This document shows positions 2,653 through 28,825 of a stretch of DNA of 32,000 nucleotides, piece after piece. Source of the DNA: Opitutales bacterium. Lineage in GTDB: Bacteria; Verrucomicrobiota; Verrucomicrobiia; Opitutales; PNEW01. Location: assembly GCA_965219535.1 (NCBI GenBank), contig CBDCNV010000002.1, positions 1,410,001 through 1,442,000 on the forward strand. The letters are read 5' to 3'. Position numbers and translations under genes: made by a program. Every line of letters begins with the position of its first letter. The stretch's first letter is position 1. The notes beneath the pieces were generated by a model. It did not search any database. It was not told the DNA's origin and worked only from the letters and a program-made list of their open reading frames with translations.

Positions 2653-2687
2653 GGAGGGAATGTTCGGTTCACCGAACACCTCCCTCC
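2653..2687. repeat. Strong hairpin enclosing the stop codon of the SBP-permease gene
   Basis: GGAGGGA..GTTCGG-ttca-CCGAAC..TCCCTCC, a two-part stem of about 13 bp. No U-tract follows on the gene strand (GTCAAAAAG array instead). Confidence 0.7.
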
Positions 2688-5600
2688 ATCCTAATCCGCG
2701 GATCGAGCCACATGAGCAGAAGGTCGCTGACAAGGGTGCCTAAGACTCCGAACAGGCTGAGTACCATGAGCATCGATCCGGCCAGATACATATCTTCTAT
2801 CATCAGGGCATCGAGCAATAACGGGCCGACGGTGGGCAAGCTGAGCACCATCGCGACAATGGCACCGCCGGAGACGAGTTGGGGAAAGATCGCGCCGATA
2901 CTGGAGATAAACGGATTGAGCGCCAGGCGCACAGGATATTTAATCAACACTTTAAAAGGTCGCAACCCTTTGGCTATCGCGGTAATAACGTAAGGTTTTC
3001 TCAACTCGTCGAGCAAGTTGCCACGCATGACCCGGATCATACTCGCGGTTCCCGTGACACCGAGGACGACAATGGGCACCCAGATGTGCTGCAGCAGGTC
3101 GACAATTTTTCCTCTTGTCCACTCCGGTTGGACAGCGTACTCGGGTGAATACAGACCCGTGACATTAATGCCCAGATACTTCGCACTCCAATAGAGCAGA
3201 ATCAGTGCGAGGAGAAAACTGGGAACACTCATCCCGATGAAACCGATCAACGTAAATAGATAATCACCCAAGGTATATTGGCGAACGGCCGAATAGATGC
3301 CGATGGGCAGAGCGACAGCCCAGGTAAATAAAATGGTGCCAAGTGAAATAAGAAAAGTAAGCAGGATGCGATCGCCTACCACTTCATTGACGGTGTTTTG
3401 GTTCTCCATCGACAATCCCATGTGACCCTGCAGTAATCCCTGGTCTTTCTTTTCAAAGGAAGTAAACCAGTAAAGCCCAAGCCAGCGGGCGTACTGCTCG
3501 GTGATGGGCTCATCGAGGTTAAAAATCTCGCGCAGCTTATCGACTTCTTTCATATCCGAGCTGCTGCCTCTTAACTGCAGCTCCATGATTTTAGTATCGA
3601 TGAAATTCCCCGGTGGCAGCTGGATGATTACAAAAGAAATGACCGAGATGATGAGCAGCGACGGAATCATGATGAGCAACCGCCTTCCGATGTAAGGGTG
3701 CCGCACCCCGGTCATTATTATACCGCAGACAAAAACACCGATAAACAAATACTTAATCAGTAATCCCAGGCGATTAACGCTTTTCGATTCACCTTCGGCG
3801 TCAACCAGACCGTAAGGGGCAGGAGTGATTTCGATTAATTCTTTTTTTATCTGCGCAATCGTTCCAGGAGAATGATAAGAATCTTCGAAATAGTAGGTTT
3901 CTAACCCCGCGTGGGCGGGTGGGTGGAAGCGATTACCATAAAACGCGAGGCGGGGAACATTTTTAAAATCGTTTTTGACCACGACCGGGTGCGGCGGCGC
4001 AGTACCTATATTGATCGACCAGACATTTTCTGCCGCGATGTCGAATATTTTATGGAATTGTTCACGTTGCGCTTCACGGGTGGTCGCACCGAAAGCGGAT
4101 TCGAGCAGTATCATCGATCGCCGTAAGGGATGATCGATCGGGGGCTCGATCCCGCCGAATTGAGTGGCTTCAGGATTGCCTGAAAGTCCCCCTCCTAAAT
4201 ACCACTTAAAATAGCCGAATGCTTGAAGACCTGTTAACCCAACAAATCTTTCAGGTCCCACAAGAGGATTGAATTCACTTTCGGTGGCCCAAATGGAAAT
4301 TTCCACTTGGCGCGAATTTTGTTCTGCGGAAAAGAGCGGTAGCGAAGGCTGACGTCGGATAGCGCGAATACCGACACGGCCCCAATCTTCGATGACGAGC
4401 TCAGTAGGCCCCTCGTCTTCCCCCTCCGGCAATGAATAATGCCAGGTCATACGCGTGCCGTCCTTAAACGTGCGGTAACCTTCTGAATCCCTGCCGGTGA
4501 GACCTATCGCATCGAGTATTTGATTGGCCTGTTCGGGCGCATAATCGGTAAAACTTTTATGCAGTTTTTCATGGTGAAAATACGATTCCCTTCCGGGTGA
4601 TAACTGCGCGGGCTCTCCCATCCCATTATAAACGATATCGATGATTTGCCGGCGGTTGATGGCGAGGGAGAGCGCCTGGCGGAAACGCTTGTCTATTAAA
4701 AGATCATGTTTCATCTGGGTGACCGGATTATCGGGATCGACCAAAAGGTTCATATTCGCATGGATGAGGTAACGCGAGCGTGTAGCGGGAAACCAGTGAT
4801 ACACTTCGTAATCATTGTCTTCTCGTTGTGACATGAGAAGGGTGTATGAGAGTTCCATATTCCAAATTAAGAAGGTGATCGCCCCGCTGGCAGCTGATAC
4901 AGGTATCAGATTATAATTTTTTACTTCGTAAAATAATTGATCCACATAGGGGAGCTGATTGCCTTCGGTATCAACGGCCCAGTAGTAGGGATTGCGGACA
5001 AAAACCTGGGGAGGGTTGGCGTTATAAGTACGATAGATCCAGGGCCAAAGTCGCGGGATTGCGGGGTTTGACCAAAGTTTCAATAAATAGTAGAGCCTAC
5101 TGCGCGACGGCAATCTTCTCTCCTCCAGGGTAGCCTCGATGAGCGCGTCATCGCCGATTACAGGGTTATACTTTTCCAGGTAATGACGGGGCGCGCAATA
5201 TTCAGTGGCTCGAGCCAGGCGTTCAAGAAATGTTCCATAAGGTTGAGGGAAAACGAACTTTACGGTGTGATCATCGATTTTTATAACATCCCCTCTCTTA
5301 CCGCCTATATCCATCCAATCGGCAGTTTCCATCCCAAGGATATTAAAAGGTATTTCTTTTTCCCACCAGTAGAGGATATCATCGACGGTAAAAGGGTGTC
5401 CATCAGACCATTTCATCCCTTTTCGCAGGTAAAAGGTCCATTCCCTCTTGTCGGGACTGGATTCCCAACCCTTGGCGACGTGAGGCACGATCGGGTAACC
5501 GAGCGCAGAGAAGCGCACTAGCGTGGATCCGGCATAATATCCCTTGACTCCACCCACTTCTGTTGGGGAACCCACCACTTGCAACCAGGTACCGCCATAG

Positions 5601-5953
5601 TTGCCGATACTGTCCACTCCTTTGAGCACCACCGGCTCGGGCCCCACACGTTCAGCAACCGGTGGCAGTTTTCCCTCCTTTACCAAGTCAGTAAAAAGGG
5701 GTGATTCGGATTTTGGATACCACGTGCTCGATTCACCCACACTGTAGTCAACATCCTGTTGAATTTGAAAAATATCATCCTCGGTGAAACTCACATCTCT
5801 TGAATTATTTATGAATTCAATTTCCTCCGGGTCATAGTAAATGGGTTCCTCTTCCAGATCCGGTTTTAAGATATCACTCCAGAGATATAGAAAACCGAAA
5901 AAGCAACAACCCGTGAGGAAGAGAAGAAGGAAGGTTTTTAAAATTTTATTCAT
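2669..5953 (-). CDS. Fused ABC-transporter protein: N-terminal TM anchor + family-5 (Dpp/Opp-type) solute-binding domain + linker TM + DppB/OppB-type permease
   Basis: 1094-aa ORF. It has a TM helix at the N-terminus (FLLLFLTGCCFFGFLYLW) followed by an SBP_bac_5-like core (VPHVAKGWESSPDKREWTFYLRKGMKWSDGHPFTVDD). An extra TM helix follows (LIKYLFIGVFVCGIIMTGV, about nt 3700-3775). The canonical DppB-like permease then starts at RRLLIMIPSLL, with EAA-loop region YVITAIAKGLRPFKVLIKYPVRLALNP and C-terminal LDPRIR. Confidence 0.9.
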   Translation of the reverse strand: MNKILKTFLLLFLTGCCFFGFLYLWSDILKPDLEEEPIYYDPEEIEFINNSRDVSFTEDDIFQIQQDVDYSVGESSTWYPKSESPLFTDLVKEGKLPPVAERVGPEPVVLKGVDSIGNYGGTWLQVVGSPTEVGGVKGYYAGSTLVRFSALGYPIVPHVAKGWESSPDKREWTFYLRKGMKWSDGHPFTVDDILYWWEKEIPFNILGMETADWMDIGGKRGDVIKIDDHTVKFVFPQPYGTFLERLARATEYCAPRHYLEKYNPVIGDDALIEATLEERRLPSRSRLYYLLKLWSNPAIPRLWPWIYRTYNANPPQVFVRNPYYWAVDTEGNQLPYVDQLFYEVKNYNLIPVSAASGAITFLIWNMELSYTLLMSQREDNDYEVYHWFPATRSRYLIHANMNLLVDPDNPVTQMKHDLLIDKRFRQALSLAINRRQIIDIVYNGMGEPAQLSPGRESYFHHEKLHKSFTDYAPEQANQILDAIGLTGRDSEGYRTFKDGTRMTWHYSLPEGEDEGPTELVIEDWGRVGIRAIRRQPSLPLFSAEQNSRQVEISIWATESEFNPLVGPERFVGLTGLQAFGYFKWYLGGGLSGNPEATQFGGIEPPIDHPLRRSMILLESAFGATTREAQREQFHKIFDIAAENVWSINIGTAPPHPVVVKNDFKNVPRLAFYGNRFHPPAHAGLETYYFEDSYHSPGTIAQIKKELIEITPAPYGLVDAEGESKSVNRLGLLIKYLFIGVFVCGIIMTGVRHPYIGRRLLIMIPSLLIISVISFVIIQLPPGNFIDTKIMELQLRGSSSDMKEVDKLREIFNLDEPITEQYARWLGLYWFTSFEKKDQGLLQGHMGLSMENQNTVNEVVGDRILLTFLISLGTILFTWAVALPIGIYSAVRQYTLGDYLFTLIGFIGMSVPSFLLALILLYWSAKYLGINVTGLYSPEYAVQPEWTRGKIVDLLQHIWVPIVVLGVTGTASMIRVMRGNLLDELRKPYVITAIAKGLRPFKVLIKYPVRLALNPFISSIGAIFPQLVSGGAIVAMVLSLPTVGPLLLDALMIEDMYLAGSMLMVLSLFGVLGTLVSDLLLMWLDPRIRMEGGVR

Positions 5954-5983
5954 CTAAAGGAATAAGCTCATTGTGAGCTTATT

Positions 5984-6010
5984 CAGTGAACAGTAAACAG
6001 TGAACAGTGG
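5984..6010 (+). repeat. A module upstream of SBP-permease gene 1
   Basis: CAGTGAACAGTAAACAGTGAACAGTGG. Confidence 0.85.
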
Positions 6011-6037
6011 AGAATCAGTGTTAAATTTTAGTTGAGA

Positions 6038-6111
6038 GGTGGAGCGGGCTGTCCCCAGCGCGCTTACTTTTTAAAAATTTATATAAACGTGCTGGGACAG
6101 CCCGTTCCACC
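6038..6111. repeat. Long hairpin (O module pair): about 24-bp GC-rich stem, 25-nt AT-rich loop
   Basis: GGTGGAGCGGGCTGTCCCCAGCGCG ...CTTACTTTTTAAAAATTTATATAAA... CGTGCTGGGACAGCCCGTTCCACC. Confidence 0.85.
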
Positions 6112-6130
6112 TAATACGCTTTTGCGTCTT

Positions 6131-6185
6131 TACCTAAAACTTGACACTTAAAACCTAACACGCGCGATGACTTCCGTCATCGCGC
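6131..6185 (-). terminator. Hairpin containing the stop codon + U-rich heptamer array 3' of the SBP-permease paralogue
   Basis: GCGCGATGA-cttccg-TCATCGCGC (6162-6185, 9-bp stem; the stop codon is in one arm). On the transcript it is followed by GUGUUAGGUUUUAAGUGUCAAGUUUUAGG. Confidence 0.45.
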
Positions 6186-9100
6186 TCCTCCTTCCATCCT
6201 AATCCTTGGATCGAGCCACATGAGCAAGAGGTCACTGACGAGGGTGCCTAAGACACCGAGCAGGCTGAGTACCATGAGCATCGATCCGGCCAGATACATA
6301 TCTTCTTTCATCAGGGCATCGAGCATTAAAGGCCCGACCGTTGGAAGGCTGAGCACCATCGCTACTATGGCGCCTCCTGAGATGAGTTGGGGAAAGATTC
6401 CACCGATGCTGGAAATGAATGGATTGAGCGCCAGGCGCACGGGATATTTCAGCAACAGCTTAAAGGGTCGCAGCCCCTTGGCCATCGCAGTAATGACATA
6501 AGGTTTTTTCAGCTCGTCCAACAGGTTACCGCGCATGACACGGATCATACCCGCGGTTCCAGTGACACCCAGAACGACAATCGGCACCCAGATGTGCTGC
6601 AACAAGTCGACAATCTTTCCTCGGGACCATCCAGGTTCAATCGCGTATTCGGGTGAAAATAGACCCGAGATATTAATCCCAAGATATTTCCCACTCCAAT
6701 AAAGTAGAATCAACGCAAGAAGAAAGCTGGGAATGCTCATCCCGATAAATCCGATCAAGGTGAAAAAATAATCACTCAAAGTATACTGGCGAACAGCTGA
6801 ATAGATGCCAATCGGCAAAGCGATCGCCCAGGTAAATAAAATCGTACCGAGTGAAATAAGAAAAGTGAGAAGGATGCGATCCCCAACCACTTCGTTGACC
6901 GTGTTCTGGTTCTCCATCGATAATCCCAGGTGACCCTGCAGTAAGCCCTGGTCTTTTTTTTCAAAGGAAGTAAACCAATTAAGGCCGAGCCAGTGCGCGT
7001 ATCGTTTAGCGATGGGCTTATCGAGGAGAAAGATCTCGCGCAGCTCTTCGATCTCATCGCTATTTATTTGACCTCCTTTTAATTGCAGCTCCAGGATTTT
7101 GGTCTCAATGAAATTCCCCGGAGGAAGCTGGATGATTACAAAAGAGATGACCGAGATGATAAGAAGGGTCGGGCCCAAAATGAGCAGCCGCCTTCCTATG
7201 TAGGGGTGCCTTACTCCAATCATTACCACTCCGCAGGTGAAAACACCGATAAATAAATACTTAATCAATTTTGCCAGGTGAATAACACTTTTCGATTTGC
7301 TCTTATCCTCCACTAGACCGTAAGGAGCGGGGGTTATTTCGAGTATTTCCTTTTTGATCTGAGCAACGGCTCCAGGTGATTCATCAGACTCTTCGAAGTA
7401 GTAGGTTTCTATTCCAGCCTGGGATGGCGGATTAAAGTAATTGCCATAGAATGCATTGCGCGGAATATTTTTAAAACCGTTTTTGACTACAACCGGGTGT
7501 GGTTGCGAGGTGCTTATATTGATCGACCAGACATTTTCCGCCGCAATGTCGAACACTTTATTGAAATGCTCACGTTGCGCTTCGCGCGTGGCCGCACCGA
7601 AAGCTGCTTCGGCTATTTCCATCGATCGCCTCATGGGATGATCGATCGGGGGCTCGATTCCTCCGAGTTGAGCAGCATCAGGATTGCCTGAAAGTCCACC
7701 TCTCAAATACCAGATATAGTAGCCGTATGCTTGGAGTCCCGTTAACCCGATAAAACGCGAGTATCCCAAAATAGGGTTGAATTCACTTTCTGAGGGCCAA
7801 ATGGAAAATTCCAATTGGCGTGATGTTTGTTTAAAGTAAAAAGAGAAAGCGCTGGCTGTTGTCGTATAGCGCGAATACCGACACGAGCCCAATCTTCAAT
7901 GATGAGCTCAGTCGGCCCTTCGAGCTCCCCCTCCGGGAGTGTAAAATTCCAGACCATGCGCGTACCATCCTTAAATGTGCGGTAGCCTCGCGCATCCCTA
8001 CCGGTTAGCCCTATCGCATCAAGCAGTTGATTGGCCCGGTCGGGCGCATAGTCGGTAAAGCTTTTATGTAATTTTTCATGGTGGAAAAACGATTCCCTCC
8101 CTGGTGATAACTGCGCGGGTTCCCCCACCCCATTGAATACGATGTCGATAATTTGCTGGCGATTGATGGCAAGGGAGAGCGCCTGGCGAAAGCGCTTGTC
8201 TATTAATAGATCATGTTTCATTTGGGTAACCGGATTATCAGGGTCGACCCTAAGATTTTGATTCGGATAGATGAGAAACCGCGAGCGTGTAGCAGGAAAC
8301 CAGTGATACACTTCATAGTCGTTTGTTTCGCGTTGTGACATGAGCAGGATATAGTTTAAATCCATACTTTCAAAAATCTTAAAGGTAATGGCCCCGTTGG
8401 CCGCTGCGATGGGAATCAAATTATAGTTTTTAACGTCGACAAATAATTGGTCCACATAGGGAAGCTGATTACCTTCGGTATCGACTGCCCAGTAGTAGGG
8501 ATTGCGGACAAATACCTGGGGAGGGTTGGCTTTATAAGTATGATATATCCAGGGCCATAGCCGTGGGTGTTCGGGATTGTTTGTTAATTTTAATATTACG
8601 TATAGGCTTCTACGCGATGGCAGTCTTCTCGCCTCGAGGGTAGCTTCGATGAGAGAATCATCACCGAGTTTCGGATGGTATTTTTCCAGGTAATGCCGCG
8701 GTGAGCAGAAATCACTGGATTTAGCCATGAAATCAAGAAACGATCCATAAGGTTGAGGAAAAATGAACTTTACGGTATAATCATCAATTTTTACAGTTTC
8801 TCCCACCTTTCCCCCCACTTTCATCCACTGGGGCGGTAAACTTCCCGGATATACAGGATCGGTTTCTCCATATAGACGGTAAAGGATATCGTCGGCAGTA
8901 AAAGGGTGACCATCGGACCACTTCATGCCTCGGCGCAAATAAAAAACCCATTCCCTCTTGTCGGGACTGGATTCCCAACCCTTGGCCACATGAGGCACAA
9001 TCGGGTAACCGAGCGGAGACCAGCGAACAAGTGTGGAACCTGAAGAGAAGGAAACAATTTTACGTATATCATTTTGTGATCCTGCCACTTCAAACCAGGT

Positions 9101-9463
9101 GCCGCCATAGCTACCGATACCTTCCACACCTTTAAACACTACCGGCTCGGGTCCTACCCGCTCTGCCACCAGGGGTAATTTGCCCTCGGCTACAAGTTCA
9201 GATAAGAGGGGTGACTCGGCTTGTGGATACCACGACGCGGTTTTCCCTTCACTGTAATCAACATCCAGCTGAATTTTGAAAAGATCATTTTCGGTGAAAC
9301 TCACATCTCTAGAATTTTCTATAAATTCAATTTCTTCCGGGTCATAGTAAATGGGTTCCTCTTCCAGATCCGGTTTTAGGATATCACTCCAAAGATAAAG
9401 AAATCCGAAAAAACAAAAACCCGTGAGGAGGAGGAGAAGGAAGGTTTTTAAAATTTTAATCAT
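6177..9463 (-). pseudogene. Frameshifted tandem paralogue of the fused SBP-permease gene
   Basis: ORFs 7742..9463 and 6177..7892 are collinear with the 1094-aa neighbour (roughly 75-80% aa identity by eye) but lie in different frames. The frame switch maps to the A5 run at 7838-7842 (T5 on the coding strand). Adding one T restores ...LFYFKQTSRQLEFSIW..., matching ...LFSAEQNSRQVEISIW... in the paralogue. The 3287-nt span is not a multiple of 3. This could be a real pseudogene, a homopolymer sequencing error or a slippage site. Confidence 0.8.
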
Positions 9464-9494: not shown

Positions 9495-9520
9495 CAGTGA
9501 ACAGTAAACAGTGAACAGTG
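9495..9520 (+). repeat. A module upstream of SBP-permease gene 2
   Basis: CAGTGAACAGTAAACAGTGAACAGTG. An inverted partner lies at 9740-9770. Confidence 0.85.
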
Positions 9521-9694: not shown

Positions 9695-9770
9695 CCTTAA
9701 CCTAAATCTTAACACTTAAAACGCGCGAAAACGCTTCCCCACTGTTCACTGTTTACCGTTCAATGTTCAC
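9695..9770 (-). repeat. Composite A-H-D module copy 4 (inverted)
   Basis: Reverse complement reads GTGAACATTGAACGGTAAACAGTGAACAGTGGGGAAGCGTTTTCGCGCGTTTTAAGTGTTAAGATTTAGGTTAAGG. Confidence 0.8.
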
Positions 9771-9945: not shown

Positions 9946-10827
9946 ATGTCTGAATATTCATTATCTGAGAAACAGATCAATCGGTATCAATCAGAAAGCC
10001 ACCTGGTGATTCCGTCGGTGTTTGGCAAAGACGTATTAGGGGAAATTGATCAAACAATTCGCGACTTGACCGACCAGGCCATCGAATCGGGTCAAGCGGA
10101 TAAAATCATGGAGCTGGAACCTCAACAGGTGAATGGTCATTACGTGCCGCGACGTATTTATAACCCGTTTGATCAGCATGAATGTTTTCGGAAACTGGCA
10201 ACCGACGATCGCATTATGGACCGTATCGGATCACTGATCGGCCCAAACATTGCATTGCACCACAGTAAGTTGAATATGAAGCCGGGGAAAGTCGGCTCAG
10301 TAGTCGAGTGGCATCAGGACCTGGCGTATTTTCCTCATACCAACGACGACCTGGTGACGACGCTGATCTATCTCGATGATGCTACGGAAAAAAACGGCTG
10401 CCTTCAGGTGCTGCCACGCCAACATACTCATCACTTCGATCACCGCTTACCTGACGGCAAGTTTGCGGGCATGATCACTGAATCGATCGACGAGAATCAA
10501 TTTGGAAAACCGGTCGCTCTGGCCGCGGAAGCAGGCAGTATAATTTTAATGCATGTCAACACACCGCACAGTTCGCTCCCGAATACTTCCGACAAGCCCC
10601 GCCGTACAATAATTTTTGAATACCGTGCCGCAGACGCGTTCCCGATTTACTCCGGTATTTATGTCCACGAATTAGAGATGCACGCCCATCATCTTCGCGG
10701 TGAACGATCACTTCATGCCCGTTTTGGTAATCTCGTGCCTATGATCCCGGACATTCCAGGAGACGCTCAAAAGAAGTCCCTTTACAAACTCCAGGAAGAA
10801 GCACGATCCCAACAAGAGGCATCTTAA
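9946..10827 (+). CDS. Phytanoyl-CoA dioxygenase (PhyH) family Fe(II)/2-oxoglutarate oxygenase, paralogue 1
   Basis: 293-aa ORF with HxD iron motif VEWHQDLAYFPH and distal His region ILMHVNTPHSSLPNTSDKPRR, typical of the PhyH family. Confidence 0.85.
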   Translation: MSEYSLSEKQINRYQSESHLVIPSVFGKDVLGEIDQTIRDLTDQAIESGQADKIMELEPQQVNGHYVPRRIYNPFDQHECFRKLATDDRIMDRIGSLIGPNIALHHSKLNMKPGKVGSVVEWHQDLAYFPHTNDDLVTTLIYLDDATEKNGCLQVLPRQHTHHFDHRLPDGKFAGMITESIDENQFGKPVALAAEAGSIILMHVNTPHSSLPNTSDKPRRTIIFEYRAADAFPIYSGIYVHELEMHAHHLRGERSLHARFGNLVPMIPDIPGDAQKKSLYKLQEEARSQQEAS

Positions 10828-11768: not shown

Positions 11769-13141
11769 TACAACCAGGACATGGTTTACAGATTTAGATC
11801 AAGACATGGTTTACACTTTGTGAGGGATGCTGAACGGTAATCGGGTTATATAGTTAAGTTAATGTTATGCGGTTTTAGAGGTTTGGCTGGCATTGTTGGG
11901 GCCGCAAGCGGCCCCAATGAAAGCAGCCGTTGAAAGGTCAATCTGACCGATTCTGAGAGTGGCAAAGTAAACATCGAAGTGTACCGTGTCTAGTGGTTTT
12001 AGTCCAACGCTCCAACCGGCGAGGGCGGTGGAGATAGGAATCTGGAAGCCATCGAGTTTGATAGACCCGCTTTTTGAGACCCGGCGAGTCATCAAATCAT
12101 AGCTGATATCGGCAGGAGTGCCACCGTAAGGATGAGAGCTGTGCTGATAGATTTCAGAGGGCGTGCTCATGGCAAGAGCCGCATGGGGGCGTTCTTCATT
12201 GAAGGTCTTGCGCCACAGATCGAAGGCCACCTGTTGGGTGCGAAGATCGTCCTGGGCATGTTTTTGCAACTCCTCTTTGATATCGCGATGGAGACGCTCA
12301 TGGGCACCGTTATCCTGGGGTTTACCCGGACGTCCACGCTCGAGATTGATCCCTAAGGCCAGCCACCAGGCCGCCAGTTTGCTCAGGCCCAGGACCGCAT
12401 TGGCACTGGCAAAGGGACTGCCGTTGTCGCTGCGGATGCAAGCGGGAAGTCCATAGCGTTCAAAGAGTTTTGTGAAGCATTCACGCACCGCTTCGCTACG
12501 GGCTGAACTGAGCACCCGCACCTCTAATACATAGCGGCTCCATTCATCCCGTACCGTCAAAGGTTCACAACGGTTGCCATCAACGGTGTGCCACCACCCT
12601 TTGAAGTCTACGCTCCACACTTCGTTACAGCCACTGGCCTTGACGCTGCGGTAAAGGCGTCCGCTTTTTTGAGCGCTTCTGCGCCGACGCTTTTGCACCA
12701 GTCCCGCACGTTCCAAGACCCGTTTCACGCTCGAGTCTGAGGGGGCCTTCCCGTAACGCCTCTGGTAAAGCTCGCGGATCTTGTAGGGGCCCCACGTCGG
12801 GTGATGATGCTTGAGTTTGATCAGCGTACATACTACTGATTCGGATAGTTCCTGAACACTTCCATGCGGTCGGCGTGAGCGCTCGTGCAACCCCTCCATC
12901 CCTTCGCTCAGGAAGCGCTTCTTCCATTTATACCCTGTCGGTCGGCTGATCCCGTAGTCTTCACACAGCTCGTTCATCTTTACTCCCGGTTGCATCGATT
13001 CCAGGGCGAATTGGTATCTTTGGTCCATTTTATTTGTTTCCTTCCATGACATCATACCCCTTACTTAGCATCCTTCTTTCTTTGGCAATCTGTAAAGGAT
13101 GTCCTGAACCTTTTGTGTAAAGAATGTCTTGAACCTATACC
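11767..13141 (-). mobile_element. IS481-like insertion sequence, complete copy (about 1375 bp)
   Basis: The left boundary is defined by where identity with the second copy begins (11767 = 31273). Imperfect terminal inverted repeats: GGTACAACCAGGACATGGTTTACAG (left) vs the reverse complement of the right end, GGTATAGGTTCAAGACATTCTTTACAC. Each end carries two 17-nt motifs CARGACATNNTTTACAS (11775-11791, 11800-11816, 13090-13106, 13115-13131). No clear target-site duplication seen. Confidence 0.8.
11865..13055 (-). CDS. IS481-family-like DDE transposase (HTH + rve integrase core)
   Basis: 396-aa single ORF. N-terminal HTH (ELCEDYGISRPTGYKWKKRF). DDE-type core segments WSVDFKGWW, IRSDNGSPF, HERLHRDIKEE. 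The true start may be the internal Met at MDQRY. Confidence 0.85.
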   Translation of the reverse strand: MMSWKETNKMDQRYQFALESMQPGVKMNELCEDYGISRPTGYKWKKRFLSEGMEGLHERSRRPHGSVQELSESVVCTLIKLKHHHPTWGPYKIRELYQRRYGKAPSDSSVKRVLERAGLVQKRRRRSAQKSGRLYRSVKASGCNEVWSVDFKGWWHTVDGNRCEPLTVRDEWSRYVLEVRVLSSARSEAVRECFTKLFERYGLPACIRSDNGSPFASANAVLGLSKLAAWWLALGINLERGRPGKPQDNGAHERLHRDIKEELQKHAQDDLRTQQVAFDLWRKTFNEERPHAALAMSTPSEIYQHSSHPYGGTPADISYDLMTRRVSKSGSIKLDGFQIPISTALAGWSVGLKPLDTVHFDVYFATLRIGQIDLSTAAFIGAACGPNNASQTSKTA

Positions 13142-15532: not shown

Positions 15533-16390
15533 TTAATTATTCATCGCTTCGATAAAGCCCCACTTCTTCAACCAATTTATCCAGCGCGCTCGCCTCGCGC
15601 TGCCATCTGGGTTGTCCAACCACCACGGATGGTAGTATTGCGAATTTTGCAAATCCATGGTCGGTCTGATGGTTTTGGCCCTTTCCACCTGTGCACGAAG
15701 ATCATATTCTTCTTGAGCAGACGTAGGGTTGCTGTAAAAGGCAAGGGAACAGTTCCTGCGGTCTTCATAACCACCAAAAGCCGCGTGCCATGTATTCTGG
15801 TTAAAGGTAATGACATCGCCTGGATGCGAACAAAATATATAGCAGGGAATATCTTCACCACTCATGCCGGATTCTTTTAGAAACTTCGATTCGTTATTAT
15901 CAGATTTACTCAACCCTATGCGAATTAGCTCATCGAACAGAGGACTCTTATGCGAACCAGGGATTAGACGCAAAGATCCGCGGTCACCGGTCGTTGGTTG
16001 CAGATAGAAGAGATTTTTGAGCATACGCAAATGTCGCTGCCGCGAATCGGGGTGCCAGTCGGTGTTATGTCTAAAGCTGTTGGCATTGGAAAGCACGGGA
16101 ACCGTGTCTTCTCCTTGTAATTGTTCTGTAGGTAGGTAAATGCGTGGATCTTCCAATAAATTTGCAATAAAAGGGGTCTCCGGAATCAGGTTAGACCAAT
16201 TAGGCCATTTACGAGAACGGCTATCCTTCTTTTTATTAAATTCATCTTTAATCGCGGTGAGATTCTTATCGAACTCCTCATTGATCCGGTCAATTTCCTC
16301 CTGGCTGAACACCTGTCGACGGACGAGAAAACCGAAGGTTTCAAAATGCTGGATCTGCTGTTCTGTGAGACTGTGATTTTCCTGAATCAT
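15533..16390 (-). CDS. PhyH-family Fe(II)/2-oxoglutarate oxygenase, paralogue 2
   Basis: 285-aa ORF. N-terminal LTEQQIQHFETFGFLVRRQVFSQEEI is typical of PhyH. HxD motif in TDWHPDS; distal His in NTWHAAFGG. Confidence 0.75.
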   Translation of the reverse strand: MIQENHSLTEQQIQHFETFGFLVRRQVFSQEEIDRINEEFDKNLTAIKDEFNKKKDSRSRKWPNWSNLIPETPFIANLLEDPRIYLPTEQLQGEDTVPVLSNANSFRHNTDWHPDSRQRHLRMLKNLFYLQPTTGDRGSLRLIPGSHKSPLFDELIRIGLSKSDNNESKFLKESGMSGEDIPCYIFCSHPGDVITFNQNTWHAAFGGYEDRRNCSLAFYSNPTSAQEEYDLRAQVERAKTIRPTMDLQNSQYYHPWWLDNPDGSARRARWINWLKKWGFIEAMNN

Positions 16391-18521: not shown

Positions 18522-19367
18522 ATGAACAAGGAAACTTTCTCAAACCTTAAATTGTTGCTCTGCTCGGGCATATTAATCCTCACATTGGCCAGTTTAACGG
18601 GTTGCGCCAAAAAAGAGGAACCGACAGTTACCGAAGCTGAACAACCAACTGCAGAGCAAGCGATCGCCGAAGCGGAGCAAGCGATCGCCGAAGTAAAAGC
18701 GGAAATACCGGCTGCCCTTGCCGAAGCAGAGCAAGCGATCGCCGAAGTTAAAGCGGAACATCCGACTGCCGATGCAGAGCATCCGACCGAAGTAGCGGAA
18801 CACCCGACCGAAGAACACCCCACTGAAGAAGCGGAACACCCGGTCGCAGAAGCAGGAGAAGAGCATCTGACTGAGGAACATCCGACCGAAGAAGCAGAGC
18901 ATCCGACCGAGGAACACCCAGCTGAAGAAGCAGAACATCCGGAACACTCTGATGAAGAAGCGGAACATCCAGAACATCCGGCTGAAGAAAGCGATCAGAC
19001 CCAGGTACAACCCCAGCGTGAAGTGGGATTGGCAGACATTTCAGATGGCATCAAAAAGCATATCGCTGAATTATCCTCCCAATCCAGTGACGGTATGTTT
19101 CACGCAGATTATGACGGTACGGACCTCGCATTAACCCTCGTAAAGGTACACGATGAAAAATTGGCTGTGTTAGGTAGCGGTGCTTACTTTGCCTGCACCG
19201 ATCTCAAGGCCACTGACGGCAGCATCTACGACCTGGATTTTTTCCTCACCGGTGAGGCCGGTAATATGAAAGTTACCGAAACTGCGGTCCATAAAGACAA
19301 TGGTACGCCACTTTACGGTTGGAAACAAAGGGATGATGGCGTCTGGATAAAAAGTCCCTTGCAATAA
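18522..19367 (+). CDS. Lipoprotein with acidic His-rich repeat region and unknown C-terminal domain
   Basis: 281-aa ORF. Signal peptide with lipobox LASLTGC (Cys28). Residues about 38-158 are low complexity: three AEQAIAE units, then 12 EHP and 1 EHL triplets (13 His) embedded in Glu/Ala/Thr. A C-terminal domain of about 120 aa has no motif I recognise. Confidence 0.8.
   Translation: MNKETFSNLKLLLCSGILILTLASLTGCAKKEEPTVTEAEQPTAEQAIAEAEQAIAEVKAEIPAALAEAEQAIAEVKAEHPTADAEHPTEVAEHPTEEHPTEEAEHPVAEAGEEHLTEEHPTEEAEHPTEEHPAEEAEHPEHSDEEAEHPEHPAEESDQTQVQPQREVGLADISDGIKKHIAELSSQSSDGMFHADYDGTDLALTLVKVHDEKLAVLGSGAYFACTDLKATDGSIYDLDFFLTGEAGNMKVTETAVHKDNGTPLYGWKQRDDGVWIKSPLQ
18633..18995 (+). repeat. In-frame coding repeats of the lipoprotein (AEQAIAE x3, EHPxEE-type x about 12)
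   Basis: Nucleotide repeats GAGCAAGCGATCGCCGAAG (x3, each containing GCGATCGC) and GAACA(T/C)CCGACCGAAGAAGC-type units. They also generate spurious antisense ORFs 18494..18823 and 18594..19010. Confidence 0.85.
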
Positions 19368-20475: not shown

Positions 20476-20497
20476 GGGAAAATACCAGTGAACAGTG
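20471..20497 (+). repeat. M module
   Basis: GTGTCGGGAAAATACCAGTGAACAGTG (26 of 27 identical). Confidence 0.8.
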
Positions 20498-20552
20498 AAC
20501 AGTGAACAGTGAAAGAGCGCTGACGCGCGTGTTAAGTATTAAGTGTTAGGTA
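20486..20552 (+). repeat. Composite A-H-D module copy 1 (GTGAACA array + small GC hairpin + GTKTTAR array)
   Basis: (CAGTGAA)x3 CAGTGAAAGAGCGCTGACGCGCGTGTTAAGTATTAAGTGTTAGGTA. Confidence 0.85.
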
Positions 20553-22406: not shown

Positions 22407-23288
22407 TCAGGCTTTCCGGTTTTCCGGACCTCCGGTTCCCTGGTAATCATACTTCTTGTTCCGGCTGATGTAGTCGATCGGCCCTTTCACGAACTTTGTT
22501 GTGGTTTTCAAGGGGCTCCCTTCGAAAAGGGCTTCCGACCCTTTTAGAAATCGGAGCGAATTATTGGTATGCCACCAACGGACAAAGTGGACCATGGCGA
22601 TCATCGGCCGTGGGGTGTCGGTGTGATTGGGCATGCCGCGATGCCAGAGGCGCATGTCGCGGATGACTACGCCCCCAGCGGGGACGTTGGGTTGGAGGGG
22701 CTCGACTTCGGCGCGCCGTCTCGCCTCGTCTTCGGGCGGGATCTTGATATCTTTTTCATCGAACGAGCGGGTGGTATCGAGGTGGGTGCCGGGCCAGATC
22801 TCGGTGCTGCCATTTTCTGGGGTCATGTCGACTACCGGGACATTGACGACGAGGGCATAAGCGGGGGTAGCCGTTTTGAGACCGGGCCACAGCTGGCCGT
22901 AGTCGACGTGCAACGGTTGCTGAGTCTCGTTCGGCAGGCAGGTGTTACCGCTGTACATGTTGTTTTTCACCCCTTCGCCAAGCGTGGCCCTCGTGATTTG
23001 GACGACGAAGTCATTGAAGAGGACATCGCGGAAGAGGTAAGGGGGAAACGGTGGCGGGTCCTGTTGCAAGTGACCGTCGTTGAATTGAAAAGGGACATTG
23101 TCGAGTGCGAGGATGTCGGCGACATCAGCGACCATGCGCTCGCCCAGGGCCTCGATGTGTTTTGAGGAAATGACATCATGGAGAATAACGAAGCCGTCCT
23201 CGCGAAGCGCTTTAAGAGTAAGTTTTAAATGTTGGGCATCGAAGCTCTGGCTCTTTCGTTCATCCTCGCTGAGGTGTAATTCTAACAT
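22407..23288 (-). CDS. PhyH-family Fe(II)/2-oxoglutarate oxygenase, paralogue 3
   Basis: 293-aa ORF. HxD in QPLHVDYG; distal His in MRLWHRGMPNHTDTPR. GC-rich relative to most neighbours. Confidence 0.75.
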   Translation of the reverse strand: MLELHLSEDERKSQSFDAQHLKLTLKALREDGFVILHDVISSKHIEALGERMVADVADILALDNVPFQFNDGHLQQDPPPFPPYLFRDVLFNDFVVQITRATLGEGVKNNMYSGNTCLPNETQQPLHVDYGQLWPGLKTATPAYALVVNVPVVDMTPENGSTEIWPGTHLDTTRSFDEKDIKIPPEDEARRRAEVEPLQPNVPAGGVVIRDMRLWHRGMPNHTDTPRPMIAMVHFVRWWHTNNSLRFLKGSEALFEGSPLKTTTKFVKGPIDYISRNKKYDYQGTGGPENRKA

Positions 23289-23465: not shown

Positions 23466-23535
23466 AGTAAACAGTGAACAGTGAACAGTGAACAGTGAAA
23501 GAGCGCTGACGCGCGCGTTAAGATTTAGGTTAAAG
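23466..23535 (+). repeat. Composite A-H-D module copy 2
   Basis: AGTAAACAGTGAACAGTGAACAGTGAACAGTGAAAGAGCGCTGACGCGCGCGTTAAGATTTAGGTTAAAG. Confidence 0.85.
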
Positions 23536-23691: not shown

Positions 23692-24597
23692 GTGAGTGAA
23701 TCTGAGACACCTGTGCTGACGAGTGAAGAGGTTGGTAAATTTTTAAATGATGGGTTTTTCATCGTTCGGGATCTGTTACCGCCCGCGGCGATTCAGCCAT
23801 TTATCGATGAATTAGTACTGAAAGTCGACGTGGCGGCAAATGCCGCCGTCGAAAAAGGTGTGCTCGACCCGGCAGATACCTTCGACGATGCGCCGTTTGA
23901 GACTCGTCTCGGTTTGATTTGCAAGGCATGCTCGGAGCGCAACTGGGTATGGAAGCATTACTTCGGTGAAGCGAGTATCTACGATGAGATACAAAAACCG
24001 CGATCGAATGGCATGTTTATCCTGCGAACCTGGCCATCGCTCCTGGATCTTGTCGAATCGGTAATCGGTCCCGAGATATTTGCCCACCCGCAATATAATA
24101 TTCGCACTAAACTTCCCGATCAGGTAGAGACTGTCATTCCCTGGCATCAGGACCTGGCCTTCTTGAACGCGAATGAGGTCGGCGATACCCTTGTCTTGAA
24201 TTTCTGGATTCCTCTTGTCGATGCGCGGGCTGAAAACGGTTGTATGCAGATGATGCGCGGGACCCACGCGCTGCCGCTGTTGCCCCACAATCTGCAGCTG
24301 CCGGTGCCTGACGGCAAGATACTCGTCGGCATCGAGGACCGTGATCTTCCAGACGGGGAGATTGTGACAGGCGAGATGAATGTCGGCGATGTGCTTATGA
24401 CCACTGAACGCGTCCTTCATCGATCGCTGCCCAACATCTCGGACACCGTCCGCTGGAGCGTTGATACCCGCTACAGCGCCCTGGGAAAACCGACCGGTCG
24501 CGACGACGTGCCGGGCTTTGTCGCCCGCAGCCGTGAACATCCTGACCGCGTCGCCCAATCAGCACGCGATTGGAAGCAAAAATTTGAAAACGTTTAA
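23692..24597 (+). CDS. PhyH-family Fe(II)/2-oxoglutarate oxygenase, paralogue 4
   Basis: 301-aa ORF with a GTG start at 23692. HxD in IPWHQDLAFL; distal His in RVLHRSLPNISDTVR. Confidence 0.8.
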   Translation: MSESETPVLTSEEVGKFLNDGFFIVRDLLPPAAIQPFIDELVLKVDVAANAAVEKGVLDPADTFDDAPFETRLGLICKACSERNWVWKHYFGEASIYDEIQKPRSNGMFILRTWPSLLDLVESVIGPEIFAHPQYNIRTKLPDQVETVIPWHQDLAFLNANEVGDTLVLNFWIPLVDARAENGCMQMMRGTHALPLLPHNLQLPVPDGKILVGIEDRDLPDGEIVTGEMNVGDVLMTTERVLHRSLPNISDTVRWSVDTRYSALGKPTGRDDVPGFVARSREHPDRVAQSARDWKQKFENV

Positions 24598-25277: not shown

Positions 25278-25402
25278 ATCCAATTATGAATTAGGAGTTT
25301 AGAATTATGATGCGATGGCAGCTTTTCCATAGTGTATATTATAAATAATAAAAAAGAAACGATGACATTTAATTTCAATGTTTGACCCCTTTCCCGCGCC
25401 CC

Positions 25403-26854
25403 ATGAAGTCCAAAACCATCGCGTCAGTCGTCCTGCTACTGAGCGTTTTCGCAATGCCGCTAACCGCCACCGATCCCATCGCCATAGACTCGCGGCGGGA
25501 ACTGTTTATTGATCATCATTTGATCGGATCGCTCAACGGTGTGCGCCTCGTGTTGCATCGCCCGCAACCGCGCGAAATCGTCTTCGAGTTCGATCAGCCC
25601 TGGGAGGGACTCTACAGCGGGTACGAGACCGTGCTCAAAGACGGCGAGACCTACCGGTTCTATTATCGGGGGATGCCCGAAGCAAAACACGATCTCGATA
25701 CGGAAGTCATCTGTGTCGCGGATAGCAAAGACGGTATTCACTGGACGCGGCCCAAACTGGGCATATACGAAGTCCGCGGCACGAAAGACAACAACGTGGT
25801 GCTGGCGCGTAATCGCGGCTGCCACAACCTCGCACCGTTCATAGACACCAATCCGAATTGCCCGGCCGAAGAACGGTATAAAGCGCTGGGCGGGACCGGC
25901 GAACCGGGTCTGCTGGCCTTTGTATCGGCCGACGGTCTGCACTGGAAGCAACTCCAGGCGGACCCTGTAATCACCAAAGGCGCATTTGATTCCCAGAACA
26001 ACGCATTCTGGTCCGTCAGCGAAAAACAGTACGTTTGCTATTTCCGAGTCTTCCGGGATGGAATTCGTTGGATTGCGCGTACGACGTCGATGGATTTCGT
26101 CCACTGGACGGAACCGATCGACCTGGAGCTTGGCGGCCAGCCCCGCGAACACCTCTACACGAACCAGTTCGACCCCTACGTCCGAGCTCCGCACATCTAT
26201 CTGGGACTTCCTACGCGTTACCTGCCCGGGCGTCGTGTATTGACGGACGAGGAAGCCAAAGGGATCGGCACACCCACGAAATGGAACTACGTCGATGATA
26301 GTACGGACATCCTGCTTGCATCAGCACGCGGTGGTGACAACTTCCAGCGCACATTCATGGAGGCCTTTGTTCGGCCGGGAGCAGACCTGCAAAACTGGAC
26401 GTCACGAGCAAATTACGCGGCGCGCGGCATCGTGCAAACGGGCGAACGAGAATTGTCCCTCTTCGTGAAGCACCACTCCGGCTATCCCTCGAATCACGTC
26501 CAGCGCTATGTGATCCGACCGGACGGCTTTGTCTCCGTGCAAGCTCCTTACAACGGTGGCGAGTTGATCACCAAACCGTTCACCTTCACCGGCGCAAAGT
26601 TGTCGCTTAACTACGCCACTTCCGCTGTAGGTGGGATATTCGTCGAGATTCAGACTCCCGACGGTAAACCAATCGAAGGATTTGCACTTGCGGACTGCTT
26701 GGAAATGATCGGAGACCGGATATACCACACCGTAAACTGGAAAAAAGGTTCGGATGTGAATTCCCTGGCCGGCAAGCCCGTCCGAGTGAAGTTCGCAATG
26801 AAAGACGCCGACCTCTACTCGATGCAATTCACTAGCAGGGGAGGGACAAAGTGA
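25403..26854 (+). CDS. Secreted protein, predicted beta-propeller glycoside-hydrolase-like fold (function unknown)
   Basis: ORF 25382..26854. Start moved to ATG 25403 (MKSKTIASVVLLLSVFAMPLTA signal peptide). Repeated segments such as DQPWEG...YRFYYRG, SKDGIHWTRP, SADGLHWKQ and SMDFVHWTEP resemble blades of GH32/43-type propellers. The family assignment is from pattern memory only. Confidence 0.6.
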   Translation: MKSKTIASVVLLLSVFAMPLTATDPIAIDSRRELFIDHHLIGSLNGVRLVLHRPQPREIVFEFDQPWEGLYSGYETVLKDGETYRFYYRGMPEAKHDLDTEVICVADSKDGIHWTRPKLGIYEVRGTKDNNVVLARNRGCHNLAPFIDTNPNCPAEERYKALGGTGEPGLLAFVSADGLHWKQLQADPVITKGAFDSQNNAFWSVSEKQYVCYFRVFRDGIRWIARTTSMDFVHWTEPIDLELGGQPREHLYTNQFDPYVRAPHIYLGLPTRYLPGRRVLTDEEAKGIGTPTKWNYVDDSTDILLASARGGDNFQRTFMEAFVRPGADLQNWTSRANYAARGIVQTGERELSLFVKHHSGYPSNHVQRYVIRPDGFVSVQAPYNGGELITKPFTFTGAKLSLNYATSAVGGIFVEIQTPDGKPIEGFALADCLEMIGDRIYHTVNWKKGSDVNSLAGKPVRVKFAMKDADLYSMQFTSRGGTK

Positions 26855-26874
26855 ACGGTGAACAGTAAACAGTG
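26851..26874 (+). repeat. A module containing the stop codon of the preceding gene
   Basis: GTGAACGGTGAACAGTAAACAGTG. The TGA stop (26852-26854) is part of the first unit. Confidence 0.85.
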
Positions 26875-26902: not shown

Positions 26903-27038
26903 TCCAGACCGAGCACCAAACATCAATTATCAAATCACAAATAAGCTCCAATGATTGAAATACCAATTCATGAAATAAATGAAAAGACAGTTTGGTTATT
27001 TATAATTGTAAATTGGATTTTATTTGAAATTTGTGATT

Positions 27039-27065
27039 GGGGGATGTCGGGCTTTGCCCTCGGTA
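27039..27065 (-). repeat. G-element copy 12 (right end of MITE-like copy a)
   Basis: Reverse complement reads TACCGA GGGC-aaa-GCCC GACATCCCCC. Confidence 0.85.
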
Positions 27066-27109
27066 GCTTTTTGTAATTTCTCGACTTGTCCTCGACTCCC
27101 CTGAACCCT

Positions 27110-27138
27110 GTACCGAGAGCGTAGCTCGACATCTTCCA
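27110..27138 (+). repeat. G-element copy 13
   Basis: GTACCGA GAGC-gta-GCTC GACATCTTCCA. Confidence 0.9.
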
Positions 27139-27149
27139 CCCTGAACCCT

Positions 27150-27177
27150 GTACCGAGGGTATATCCGACATCTTCCA
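27150..27177 (+). repeat. G-element copy 14
   Basis: GTACCGA GGG-tatat-CC GACATCTTCCA (one stem base missing). Separated from copy 13 by CCCTGAACCCTG. Confidence 0.85.
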
Positions 27178-27289
27178 CCGTGAACCGAGAGAGAAAAGAG
27201 AAGGAGTCAGACCCTGCATTTTCGCAATTATAATTTTGCAGGAACGCAGAGCCTAACCCCTTTAGACCTTCGTTAGTAATCACGCTCTC

Positions 27290-27844
27290 TTATTGATTAA
27301 TCTTAACCGTGACAGGTACCGTATTCTGTACCGTGTCAAAGATGACAGAGTGCTGGATAATCTCCTTTAACTCTTCTTCATCCGCATCAGATTGTATATT
27401 GAATCCAATCTCAATATCCTGAAACCCGGGACGCACCTTAGGATCTATTCCCAGTAAACCTTGAAGATCTAATTTTCCTTTAGCTTTTGATTTCATTTTA
27501 TATATCGTTATCCCTCTGGCAGCGGCATGATAGGCGATCGTCGTCGTTAAACATCCTGCTAGGGCATGCAGTAAATATTCAGCAGGATTCACGGCCTTGT
27601 CTGTTCCCAGAAGAGAAATAGGTTCATCATTGGTATATTCGAATTCCTGAGTCCGCGTTGTGTCTTCTTCCTTCGCTCCGTAGAAGCCTTTAAAGGTTGA
27701 TTTATTTATCGACCCATCGACCCAGGTGTTGTCAGCCCTGAATTCAAACTGGGCTAATTCAGGATCACTTTTCATGACTTCGATGTTTTCATTGAGTTGA
27801 GCGACGTCTACTCCGTTTACTTTTGTTTCTATTGTTTTGTTCAT
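27290..27844 (-). CDS. OsmC/Ohr-family peroxiredoxin-like protein
   Basis: 184-aa ORF with the conserved LLHALAGCLTTTIAYHAAARGI segment of the OsmC family. AT-rich compared with flanking genes. Confidence 0.8.
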   Translation of the reverse strand: MNKTIETKVNGVDVAQLNENIEVMKSDPELAQFEFRADNTWVDGSINKSTFKGFYGAKEEDTTRTQEFEYTNDEPISLLGTDKAVNPAEYLLHALAGCLTTTIAYHAAARGITIYKMKSKAKGKLDLQGLLGIDPKVRPGFQDIEIGFNIQSDADEEELKEIIQHSVIFDTVQNTVPVTVKINQ

Positions 27845-27878
27845 TTTTTGTCCTTTGTTGTGTTTTTATGGTTAATAT

Positions 27879-27892
27879 ACAGACATGTCTGT
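27879..27892. promoter_or_regulatory. Candidate TetR operator O2 (perfect palindrome ACAGACATGTCTGT) upstream of the osmC-like gene
   Basis: A perfect 14-bp palindrome lies in the 71-nt tetR-osmC spacer, 35 nt upstream of the osmC ATG. It has the same half-sites as the site upstream of tetR. Confidence 0.6.
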
Positions 27893-27915
27893 CTGTTTTA
27901 TTCGAAAAAAATATA

Positions 27916-28500: not shown

Positions 28501-28517
28501 TGAGCAAAGCTAAATAA

Positions 28518-28533
28518 GACAGACCTGTCTGTC
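28518..28533. promoter_or_regulatory. Candidate TetR operator O1 (GACAGAC-CT-GTCTGTC) upstream of tetR
   Basis: 7-bp inverted arms with a 2-nt centre, 18 nt upstream of the tetR ATG. It shares ACAGAC-NN-GTCTGT with O2. Confidence 0.6.
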
Positions 28534-28620
28534 AAGTATTTTTAAAAAAAAATGCCTATAAGCACAAACAGGTACTTTAACGTGTTAAATTTAAATAGGT
28601 TAGGACCTGTGTGGGGGGAT

Positions 28621-28646
28621 CAGTGAACAGTAAACGGTGAACAGTG
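28621..28646 (+). repeat. A module
   Basis: CAGTGAACAGTAAACGGTGAACAGTG. Confidence 0.85.
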
Positions 28647-28702
28647 GGAGAGTTGCGTGTTATTTCTAATGGAGATTATTATATTTCCCTGAACCCTGAA
28701 CC
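28639..28702 (+). repeat. Q module
   Basis: AACAGTGGGAGAGTTGCGTGTTATTTCTAATGGAGATTATTATATTTCCCTGAACCCTGAACC. Confidence 0.55.
28687..28702 (-). repeat. E module (C-strand)
   Basis: CCCTGAACCCTGAACC. Confidence 0.75.
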
Positions 28703-28727
28703 TCTTCATTCGTATATCGTTCTACCT

Positions 28728-28803: not shown

Positions 28804-28825
28804 TAGATCGTATATCTTTCTCCCT

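Follow-up and report, generated by a model that had tools for sequence, protein, structure and literature searches.

How does a binding protein fused to only one half of an importer's channel work, when the rest of the importer is not encoded beside it? The textbook importer of the Opp/Dpp family is a five-gene system whose binding protein is free. In a 32,000-nucleotide stretch of an Opitutales bacterium (the window; assembly GCA_965219535.1, contig CBDCNV010000002.1, positions 1,410,001 to 1,442,000), by contrast, a binding protein and a B-type permease form one polypeptide, encoded by gene A (2669..5953, minus strand), and a related gene, B (6177..9463, minus strand), precedes it. A first-pass annotation of the same DNA had proposed that the two products form a heterodimeric membrane unit with two tethered binding domains and with ATPases recruited from elsewhere. 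The present analysis favours a different reading, which we consider probable, in which A is an exchangeable cassette that relies on a C-type permease and two ATPases (the C-D-F module) supplied by genes elsewhere, and B is a paralogue that was inactivated recently. Fusions of this kind are widespread in sequence databases, apparently undescribed, and in this lineage found as lone genes.

Architecture of gene A

Gene A is an intact single open reading frame (ORF) of 1094 residues, running from 5953 to 2669, in which an N-terminal anchor helix, a family-5 binding domain, a linker helix and a DppB-type permease follow one another. Pfam places SBP_bac_5 (PF00496) at residues 155-556 (E=2e-47), BPD_transp_1_N (PF19300) at 755-867 and BPD_transp_1 (PF00528) at 881-1088. 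Hydropathy and an AlphaFold model built on an alignment of 102 homologues (predicted local distance difference test score, pLDDT, 81; predicted template modelling score, pTM, 0.78) concur on the layout. The anchor, transmembrane (TM) helix TM0, spans residues 2-29 (5867..5950), with a hydropathy peak at 4-22, and opens into an extracytoplasmic domain of about 680 residues that is well folded to about residue 712 (residues 30-712; 3818..5866). Its matches in PDB sequence and Foldseek searches mark this domain as a cluster-C (family 5) substrate-binding protein (SBP) of the large carbohydrate-binding subtype. A disordered tether (715-731) and an extra helix (728-751) come next (residues 713-751; 3701..3817), followed by a K/R-rich loop of 11 residues, GVRHPYIGRRL, and by the six helices of the permease (residues 752-1094; 2672..3700), whose periplasmic TM1-TM2 loop contains the scoop region. 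The linker helix brings the chain back to the cytoplasm, and its position after the extracytoplasmic domain agrees with the earlier argument that topology requires such a helix. The SBP fold of the N-terminal part, which that argument presupposed, is borne out by the PF00496 match and by a Foldseek match to SPH1118 with a TM-score of 0.90.

A candidate lipoprotein signal in gene A (LTGC, residues 12-15) was rejected. B has LTGF at the equivalent place, the hydrophobic stretch continues to residue 25 and the model shows one long helix, and the segment is therefore an anchor helix without a lipobox. Its low mean pairwise identity in the family (27%) is what is expected of a passive anchor.

By all sequence comparisons, the permease half is B-type. 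Residues 754-1088 align with residues 4-336 of E. coli DppB at E=1e-29, as against E=0.13 for DppC (blastp); the DppB of PDB entry 8z1v is matched at 1.2e-24; and the NCBIfam B-type models Opp4B, NikB, GsiC, OppB and DppB match over their full length, as against 3e-4 for the best C-type model, with no NCBIfam equivalog cut-off being reached. The first-pass assignment of both permease halves to the B type holds, these figures being those of gene A. The coupling-loop residues of the EAA motif (D982 E983 ... A994 K995 G996, within 2672..3700) are invariant across 102 family members, lone genes included, and lone fusions therefore still need an ATPase. Of the traits of the PepT family (TC 3.A.1.5), gene A has the family-5/cluster-C module and the B-type permease with its EAA loop. 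It departs from the family in that the binding protein is not a separate polypeptide, the ORF being uninterrupted in gene A and in 42 related loci.

The remaining traits of the family are missing from the locus itself. With E. coli DppC, DppD and DppF as queries, tblastn finds no similar sequence in any frame of the 32-kb window at E<=1e-4, and Pfam detects no ABC component among the 20 other window ORFs, so that two ATPases with a C-terminal oligo_HPY domain are absent from the window. A near-identical contig, L084 (99.95% identical to the window over 15.9 kb), extends 7 kb past the window's left end and carries a sulfatase, an ankyrin protein, a PhyH gene and a further IS481 copy there, and no ABC genes; a C-type permease is accordingly found neither in the window nor in these 7 kb beyond it. 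On the 3' side of A stand genes for an enolase-superfamily enzyme and an SDR protein, both convergent, and on the 5' side of B a divergent PhyH gene, as first described. The convergent orientation of the downstream genes excludes a caveat raised at the outset, namely that the operon might continue into a dppCDF set just beyond the window. With none encoded in cis, ATPases supplied from elsewhere are the most reasonable inference, in agreement with the first-pass annotation.

Distribution of the fusion

The best 120 matches to A among 5.8 billion proteins are all full-length fusions of about 1090 residues with both domains. The earlier concern that the fusion might be an artefact is thereby answered for gene A, which is real; it was partly justified for B, which is not a single ORF. 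A locus survey with one genome per species (species representatives) yielded 79 loci, 42 of which (L001-L040, L044, L046) are true fusions, defined as having no stop codon between the binding and permease halves. These come from Opitutales and other Verrucomicrobiota, Planctomycetota, Kiritimatiellia, Victivallis (Lentisphaerae), Armatimonadota, Gemmatimonadaceae, a spirochaete, Raymondbacteria, Fibrobacterota and Polyangiaceae. A query confined to the junction (A residues 620-800) retrieved 60 representatives at E<=1e-10 from a library clustered at 50% identity; the majority extend across the junction. Judged from these sequences, the fusion is one moderately diverse family that is abundant in the Planctomycetota-Verrucomicrobiota-Chlamydiota (PVC) group.

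Apparent fusions in Rhizobium, Agrobacterium, Roseobacter and Chloroflexi (L041-L043, L045, L047-L082) were discarded, since they are separate adjacent genes in the same frame that tblastn had joined. The alphaproteobacterial and Chloroflexi loci are 33-38% identical and consist of unfused neighbouring genes; RefSeq annotation of an R. leguminosarum plasmid likewise gives a 641-residue SBP, permeases of 328 and 377 residues and two ATPases. The literature searched contained no paper describing fusions of family-5 binding proteins to permeases, and where reviews touch on fused binding domains, their examples are OpuA and GlnPQ. The impression that such a fusion was unheard of is correct for this literature and incorrect for sequence databases, where the genes abound with generic labels like 'ABC transporter substrate-binding protein' or 'permease subunit'.

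Partner genes at related loci

Which partners, then, does the fusion have where it is not alone? In 23 of the 42 true-fusion loci the fusion is followed by a C-type permease and two ATPases, in that order; in 7 it is followed by a C-type permease only (with 10 kb of downstream sequence available for four); and in 12 it stands alone, nine of these having full flanks and all nine belonging to Opitutales or Verrucomicrobia. ATPases without a C-type permease occur at none. A C-type gene hence adjoins the fusion in 30 of 42 loci and two ATPases (ABC_tran plus oligo_HPY) are present in 23, with two further loci, L095 and L096, having both; wherever the survey loci have ATPases, the C-type permease sits between them and the fusion (23/23). 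The commonest operon order is fusion-DppC-DppD-DppF, and the C-type partner measures about 380-390 residues and contains an OppC_N domain.

Tandem fusions that precede a single C-D-F set, with gene junctions of 2-75 nt, occur at L019, L095 and L096. The first fusion copy of L019 has one in-frame stop. At L095 both fusions are intact (1066 and 1094 residues) and are followed by a 392-residue C-type permease and ATPases of 343 and 288 residues; L096 has the same layout, also with both fusions intact. The second fusion of L095/L096 is 73-74% identical to A and to B overall, with 86-90% in the permease half and 66-68% in the binding domain. The 2.88-Mb contig that carries L096 (ERZ28763718:ctg125045) has its fusion-fusion-C-D-F operon at 1.69 Mb and, 1.35 Mb away at 0.33 Mb, a lone fusion (P0045, locus L097) with no C, D or F gene within 10 kb. 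A complete operon and a lone fusion therefore coexist on one relative's contig, the module standing elsewhere in the same genome.

Separation of this kind is not confined to one genome. Fusions stand apart from the energising module in the window and at L001, L004, L005, L091-L094 and L097; conversely, lone C-type genes occur in Opitutales at L085, L087 and L088, and fusion plus C-type permease without ATPases at L017, L023, L025 and L028, the last of which lies on one contig with the complete operon L019. The lone C-type genes and the loci without ATPases indicate that dispersal of subunit genes is general in Opitutales. On the three contigs with lone C-type genes, a protein of about 1750 residues in which FtsX is the only recognised domain is encoded directly upstream of the C-type gene (L085 4319-9574; L087 20075-21158, cut at the locus end; L088 4317-9527), and a fucosidase gene lies downstream.

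The lone genes could also be explained by homodimers (A2), in which two copies of the fusion, with two tethered domains as in OpuA, work with stand-alone ATPases and dispense with a C-type permease. At least 10 contexts sampled in the nearest clade have no C-type gene within 10 kb, no C-type match is linked to the genomes nearest the window, and homodimeric permeases with fused binding domains do occur in other ABC families (OpuA, GlnPQ). The comparative data nevertheless make this model quite improbable. Fusion plus C-type permease is the ancestral and the majority state (30/42 loci), a lone fusion and a complete operon share a contig in one relative, E. coli B and C subunits bind different ATPases, and every complete operon includes a C-type partner. 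In addition, the permease half of A is 88% identical to that of an operon-encoded fusion with a C-type partner, and so shows no sign of a remodelled interface. If true, the homodimer would be the first in an otherwise strictly heteromeric Opp/Dpp family, with a repeated origin in Opitutales beside catabolic gene islands.

The second copy and its frameshift

The reading of A and B as a functional pair depends on both genes being intact and retained. The first-pass annotation gave each gene the order anchor, SBP, linker helix and permease; this description fits A and the layout of B, but it missed that B is split by a frameshift into two overlapping ORFs in different frames. The first (9463..7742, 573 residues) encodes the anchor and most of the binding domain, and the second (7892..6177, 571 residues) the remainder of the binding domain and the permease. 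The sequence places the -1 frame change at a T5 run (7838..7842), where a T6 run would restore ...LSLFYFKQTSRQLEFSIW, matching A. With one T added there, B encodes a protein of 1095 residues that is 78.5% identical to A, 87% in the permease half, and that retains all 127 residues invariant in 102 family members. Programmed -1 frameshifting was judged an unlikely explanation from the letters of the site: C-TTT-TTA-C permits the slip of a single tRNA only, a zero-frame X XXY YYZ heptamer is lacking, and transcriptional slippage would need a longer run.

The same frameshift is present in L084, which differs from the window by one single-nucleotide polymorphism (SNP; inside B) and one 7-bp repeat-unit indel and is therefore an independent assembly of a sister strain. 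The exact 573-residue B product is recorded on contigs in three size classes, and L084/L090 show the same state. The lesion would then be very recent or, less likely, a homopolymer consensus error. In the latter case, B would be a second live cassette, and both genes would use a C-D-F set encoded elsewhere. The defect does lie within a T5 run and is the only one in 3.3 kb, all 127 family-invariant residues are kept, and one carrier contig has 5x coverage. Its recurrence in contigs that differ by SNP and indel and that fall into three size classes speaks against an error, and the absence of B from sister genomes marks the gene as dispensable. An assembly error is unlikely on balance, and B appears to be a paralogue of A recently inactivated by a one-base deletion.

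The sister genomes are also informative about the pair itself. At the syntenic locus of four of them (L001, L091-L093) the A orthologue, 96-97% identical, is a single gene, within the order adenylate-kinase-like protein, PhyH, fusion, ADP-ribosylglycohydrolase, PhyH, enolase-superfamily enzyme, SDR and sulfatase. B is found only in the window strain and in L084, and both are without the ADP-ribosylglycohydrolase and PhyH genes located after the fusion in the sister genomes. The two-gene arrangement is not conserved. Relative to the sisters, the window locus has been rearranged, B being gained and the ADP-ribosylglycohydrolase and PhyH genes lost, with IS481 copies nearby. A paralogue of 61% identity (P0050, L094) is a lone gene beside PhyH and sulfatase genes.

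These data bear directly on the original proposal that A and B pair as a B-B unit with two tethered domains and ATPases from elsewhere. Its appeal is evident: the genes are adjacent, on the same strand and 78.5% identical, their permease halves are 87% identical, they have similar upstream repeats, and no C-type gene is nearby. The frameshift of B in several assemblies and, above all, the single A orthologue in four sister genomes largely refute it. Furthermore, tandem fusions at L095, L096 and L019 precede a C-type permease, as do the ATPases of every related locus that has them; no related locus has ATPases while lacking C, and both copies here are B-type. We regard the heterodimer as very improbable.

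At the other extreme, the lone fusions might be remnants of disrupted operons and without function. Rearrangements and IS481 and IS1595 elements are indeed frequent around the loci, and B and one L002 copy are visibly damaged. Yet A is intact over 1094 residues, 96-97% conserved across strains and in possession of every family-invariant residue, and dozens of intact lone paralogues persist per clade, which leaves the relic explanation with hardly any probability.

A proposed cassette for a shared half-transporter

The favoured model therefore takes A as a functional part of a larger machine. Specifically, A would be one 'specificity cassette' of a Dpp/Opp-family (PepT, type I) ABC importer, consisting of a carbohydrate-type family-5 domain that is anchored N-terminally and joined by a flexible tether and an extra helix to a B-type half. 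Incomplete alone, the cassette would need as partners a C-type permease (OppC_N plus BPD_transp_1, about 390 residues) and two Opp-type ATPases, encoded elsewhere; in close relatives, such a C-D-F set stands behind one or two fusion paralogues. By analogy with a relative at 74% identity, the window's genome would possess such a set, and many fusion genes in this Opitutales lineage probably share one. Fusion paralogues dispersed beside catabolic genes (for PhyH dioxygenases, sulfatases and sugar-acid enzymes) would compete for one C-D-F module, to which every fusion would bring a binding domain and a periplasmic scoop loop of its own. The tethered domain would capture substrate, dock on its own B/C pair, trigger ATP hydrolysis and release the substrate into the channel, so that one tethered domain per complex is expected and two are not. 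Tandem fusions, in this model, would reflect duplication or insertion of a cassette and no B-B heterodimer.

The structure of E. coli DppABCDF suggests why these two parts might be inherited together. There, DppB has a periplasmic scoop motif that reaches into DppA's ligand cleft, and DppB pairs with DppD and DppC with DppF (PMC12136057). Entry of the scoop into the cleft gives a reason for the binding protein and the B permease to travel together. Mean pairwise identity within the fusion family is in line with such an arrangement: 27% in TM0, 56% in the binding domain, 22% in the tether, 37% in the linker helix and 48% in the first half of the TM1-TM2 loop (the scoop region), as against 76-84% in the rest of the permease. 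Variable binding domain and scoop beside a conserved permease core fit a scenario in which the specificity parts diverge jointly while the surfaces facing C and the ATPases stay fixed.

Several points weigh against this model. Permeases are conserved above their binding proteins also in systems that share nothing, and the conservation pattern is only weakly discriminating. For the genome of the window itself, no C, D or F gene was found in the approximately 39 kb that were covered, and the C-type matches obtained with a profile search and with a lone C-type protein as query are linked to none of the nearest genomes. The frameshift in B could be the homopolymer error considered above, given the 5x coverage of one carrier contig, which is unlikely yet would turn B into a live cassette, and there is the smaller chance that the lone fusions are homodimers.

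What might the cassette import? In PDB sequence searches the A binding domain matches 5ipw (1.8e-79) and SPH1118 (2e-67), and Foldseek ranks SPH1118 with galacturonate first (root-mean-square deviation 2.9 A), followed by MelB/AgpA (alpha-galactoside) and then by chitooligosaccharide SBPs. Together with the sugar-acid, PhyH and sulfatase neighbours, these nearest folds (pectin/galacturonate, alpha-galactoside, chitooligosaccharide) point to an acidic or sulfated sugar or oligosaccharide as the probable substrate of A, an assignment made by analogy. The unfused system of R. leguminosarum pRL9b3 (L089, 2306-11192) lies beside an alpha-L-fucosidase and a LacI regulator and is followed by a 5-deoxy-glucuronate isomerase and a glycosyl hydrolase. 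Such neighbours support sugar, and not peptide, substrates for the whole subfamily.

The findings have implications beyond this locus. In Opitutales, the fusion unit came loose from the rest of the transporter and multiplied beside genes that degrade sulfated and acidic sugars. Many units on one C-D-F half-transporter would, if true, be the type I importer counterpart of the shared-module logic of energy-coupling factor (ECF) transporters, and cassette sharing would explain why genome-based tallies of 'complete' ABC systems put the uptake capacity of marine Verrucomicrobiota too low. With no annotation other than 'substrate-binding protein' or 'permease', the genes escape pathway tools that look for operons. 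The family also offers a natural system in which to study the co-evolution of a binding protein and a permease scoop loop.

Surroundings of the locus

Other neighbours in the window include, by Pfam, an adenylate-kinase-like protein, an IS481 transposase, sugar-type oxidoreductases and an M81 peptidase, among others. Four genes for PhyH-family (Fe/2-oxoglutarate) dioxygenases (9946-10827, 15533-16390, 22407-23288, 23692-24597) are unusually many, and PhyH genes stand beside fusion genes and sulfatases in many genomes of the clade (L001, L003, L091-L094, L096), a recurrent adjacency that suggests that their catabolic roles are linked. The region is flanked by copies of an IS481-family transposase (window 11865-13055 and 31371-31994; L084 2926-4089 and 22864-23285), and the window and L084 diverge exactly at such copies.

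Two kinds of repeat occur in the non-coding DNA. The 223-bp spacer between B and A holds a GC-rich inverted repeat, found by reading the sequence and by an arm search, with two arms of about 21 nt (GGTGGAACGGGCTGTCCCAGC ... GCTGGGGACAGCCCGCTCCACC) around an AT-rich loop (6038..6111); a third half-copy of the arm lies at 29116-29134, upstream of the 29167 gene. As a possible terminator or REP-like element, the inverted repeat would make A a transcription unit of its own. The tandem heptamer (ACTGTTY)n, for example CACTGTTTACTGTTCACT, is present in 14 copies in the window against 0 expected. It occurs 30-57 nt upstream of the start codon of A (5985..6009, minus strand) and 33-57 nt upstream of that of B (9496..9520, minus strand), with further sites at 2322-2393, 9747-9764, 20487-20511, 23466-23497, 26857-26874 and 28622-28639. 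The copies lie mostly 30-180 nt 5' of gene starts, in gene orientation, and the genes downstream are A, B, two PhyH genes, a transglutaminase-like gene and a TetR gene; from this placement, the heptamer may be a shared promoter, operator or element of 5' untranslated regions. Scans for promoter and terminator consensus sites gave no excess over shuffled sequence.

Three further ORFs in the window are unusual. One of 666 residues (29167-31167) fuses two oxidoreductase families, GFO/IDH/MocA oxidoreductase and aldo/keto reductase; one of 490 residues (25382-26854) has no Pfam or NCBIfam match; and the sole match of a third, of 281 residues (18522-19367), is weak and below cutoff, to the Lpp/OprI alanine-zipper family. 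Across the OsmC-like and TetR-family genes at 27000-29000, the GC content falls to 0.39-0.42, compared with about 0.49 elsewhere.

Comparison with known systems

The closest well-studied relatives are DppABCDF and OppABCDF (PepT, TC 3.A.1.5; 8z1v). With these, gene A has in common the family-5 module and the B-type permease with its BPD_transp_1_N domain, six helices and EAA loop, and relatives of the fusion have an OppC_N C-type permease and two oligo_HPY ATPases in the order A-B-C-D-F. Unlike in Dpp/Opp, the SBP is joined to the B permease by a tether and an extra helix and carries an N-terminal anchor, the fusion in this lineage has no adjoining C, D and F genes, and the substrate is probably a carbohydrate instead of a peptide. 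The unfused systems of Rhizobium, Agrobacterium and Chloroflexi, such as R. leguminosarum pRL9b3 (HA461_RS30490-30510), come nearer still: they comprise a large SBP of the same subtype (641 residues), B, a long C (377 residues), D and F in the gene order of the fusion operons, their proteins are 33-38% identical to A, and fucosidase and LacI genes adjoin. What sets them apart is that a stop codon divides SBP and B permease into separate genes.

For the binding domain, the nearest solved fold is that of SPH1118, the pectin-binding protein of Sphingomonas sp. A1 (7veu; PMC9314435), and MelB/AgpA, the alpha-galactoside-binding protein of Agrobacterium (6epy), is near as well, with a TM-score of 0.71. 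Both are free periplasmic proteins with 20-30% identity to A, a distance at which no ligand of A can be assigned from them.

With OpuA (OpuABC) and GlnPQ, A shares the covalent tethering of a binding domain to the translocator, which allows capture and delivery in cis. These systems, reportedly described by van der Heide and Poolman in 2002, are said to be homodimeric permeases of other ABC families with 2 or 4 domains per complex, the domains being of cluster F. In contrast, the domain of A belongs to family 5/cluster C and not to the amino-acid/osmolyte type of cluster F, its partner would be a different, C-type permease, so that one domain per complex is expected, and the fusions of OpuA and GlnPQ need no combination of extra helix and anchor of the kind seen in gene A.

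Finally, the proposed division of labour resembles that of the multitask ATPases of the MsmK/MsiK type, which serve sugar ABC importers, and that of group II ECF transporters, in which scattered substrate-specific components depend on a module encoded once elsewhere, just as the scattered fusion cassettes would depend on theirs. The parts are cut differently, however: in the system proposed here, the shared part would be one permease together with both ATPases, and the exchangeable part would be a permease half that brings its own binding domain.

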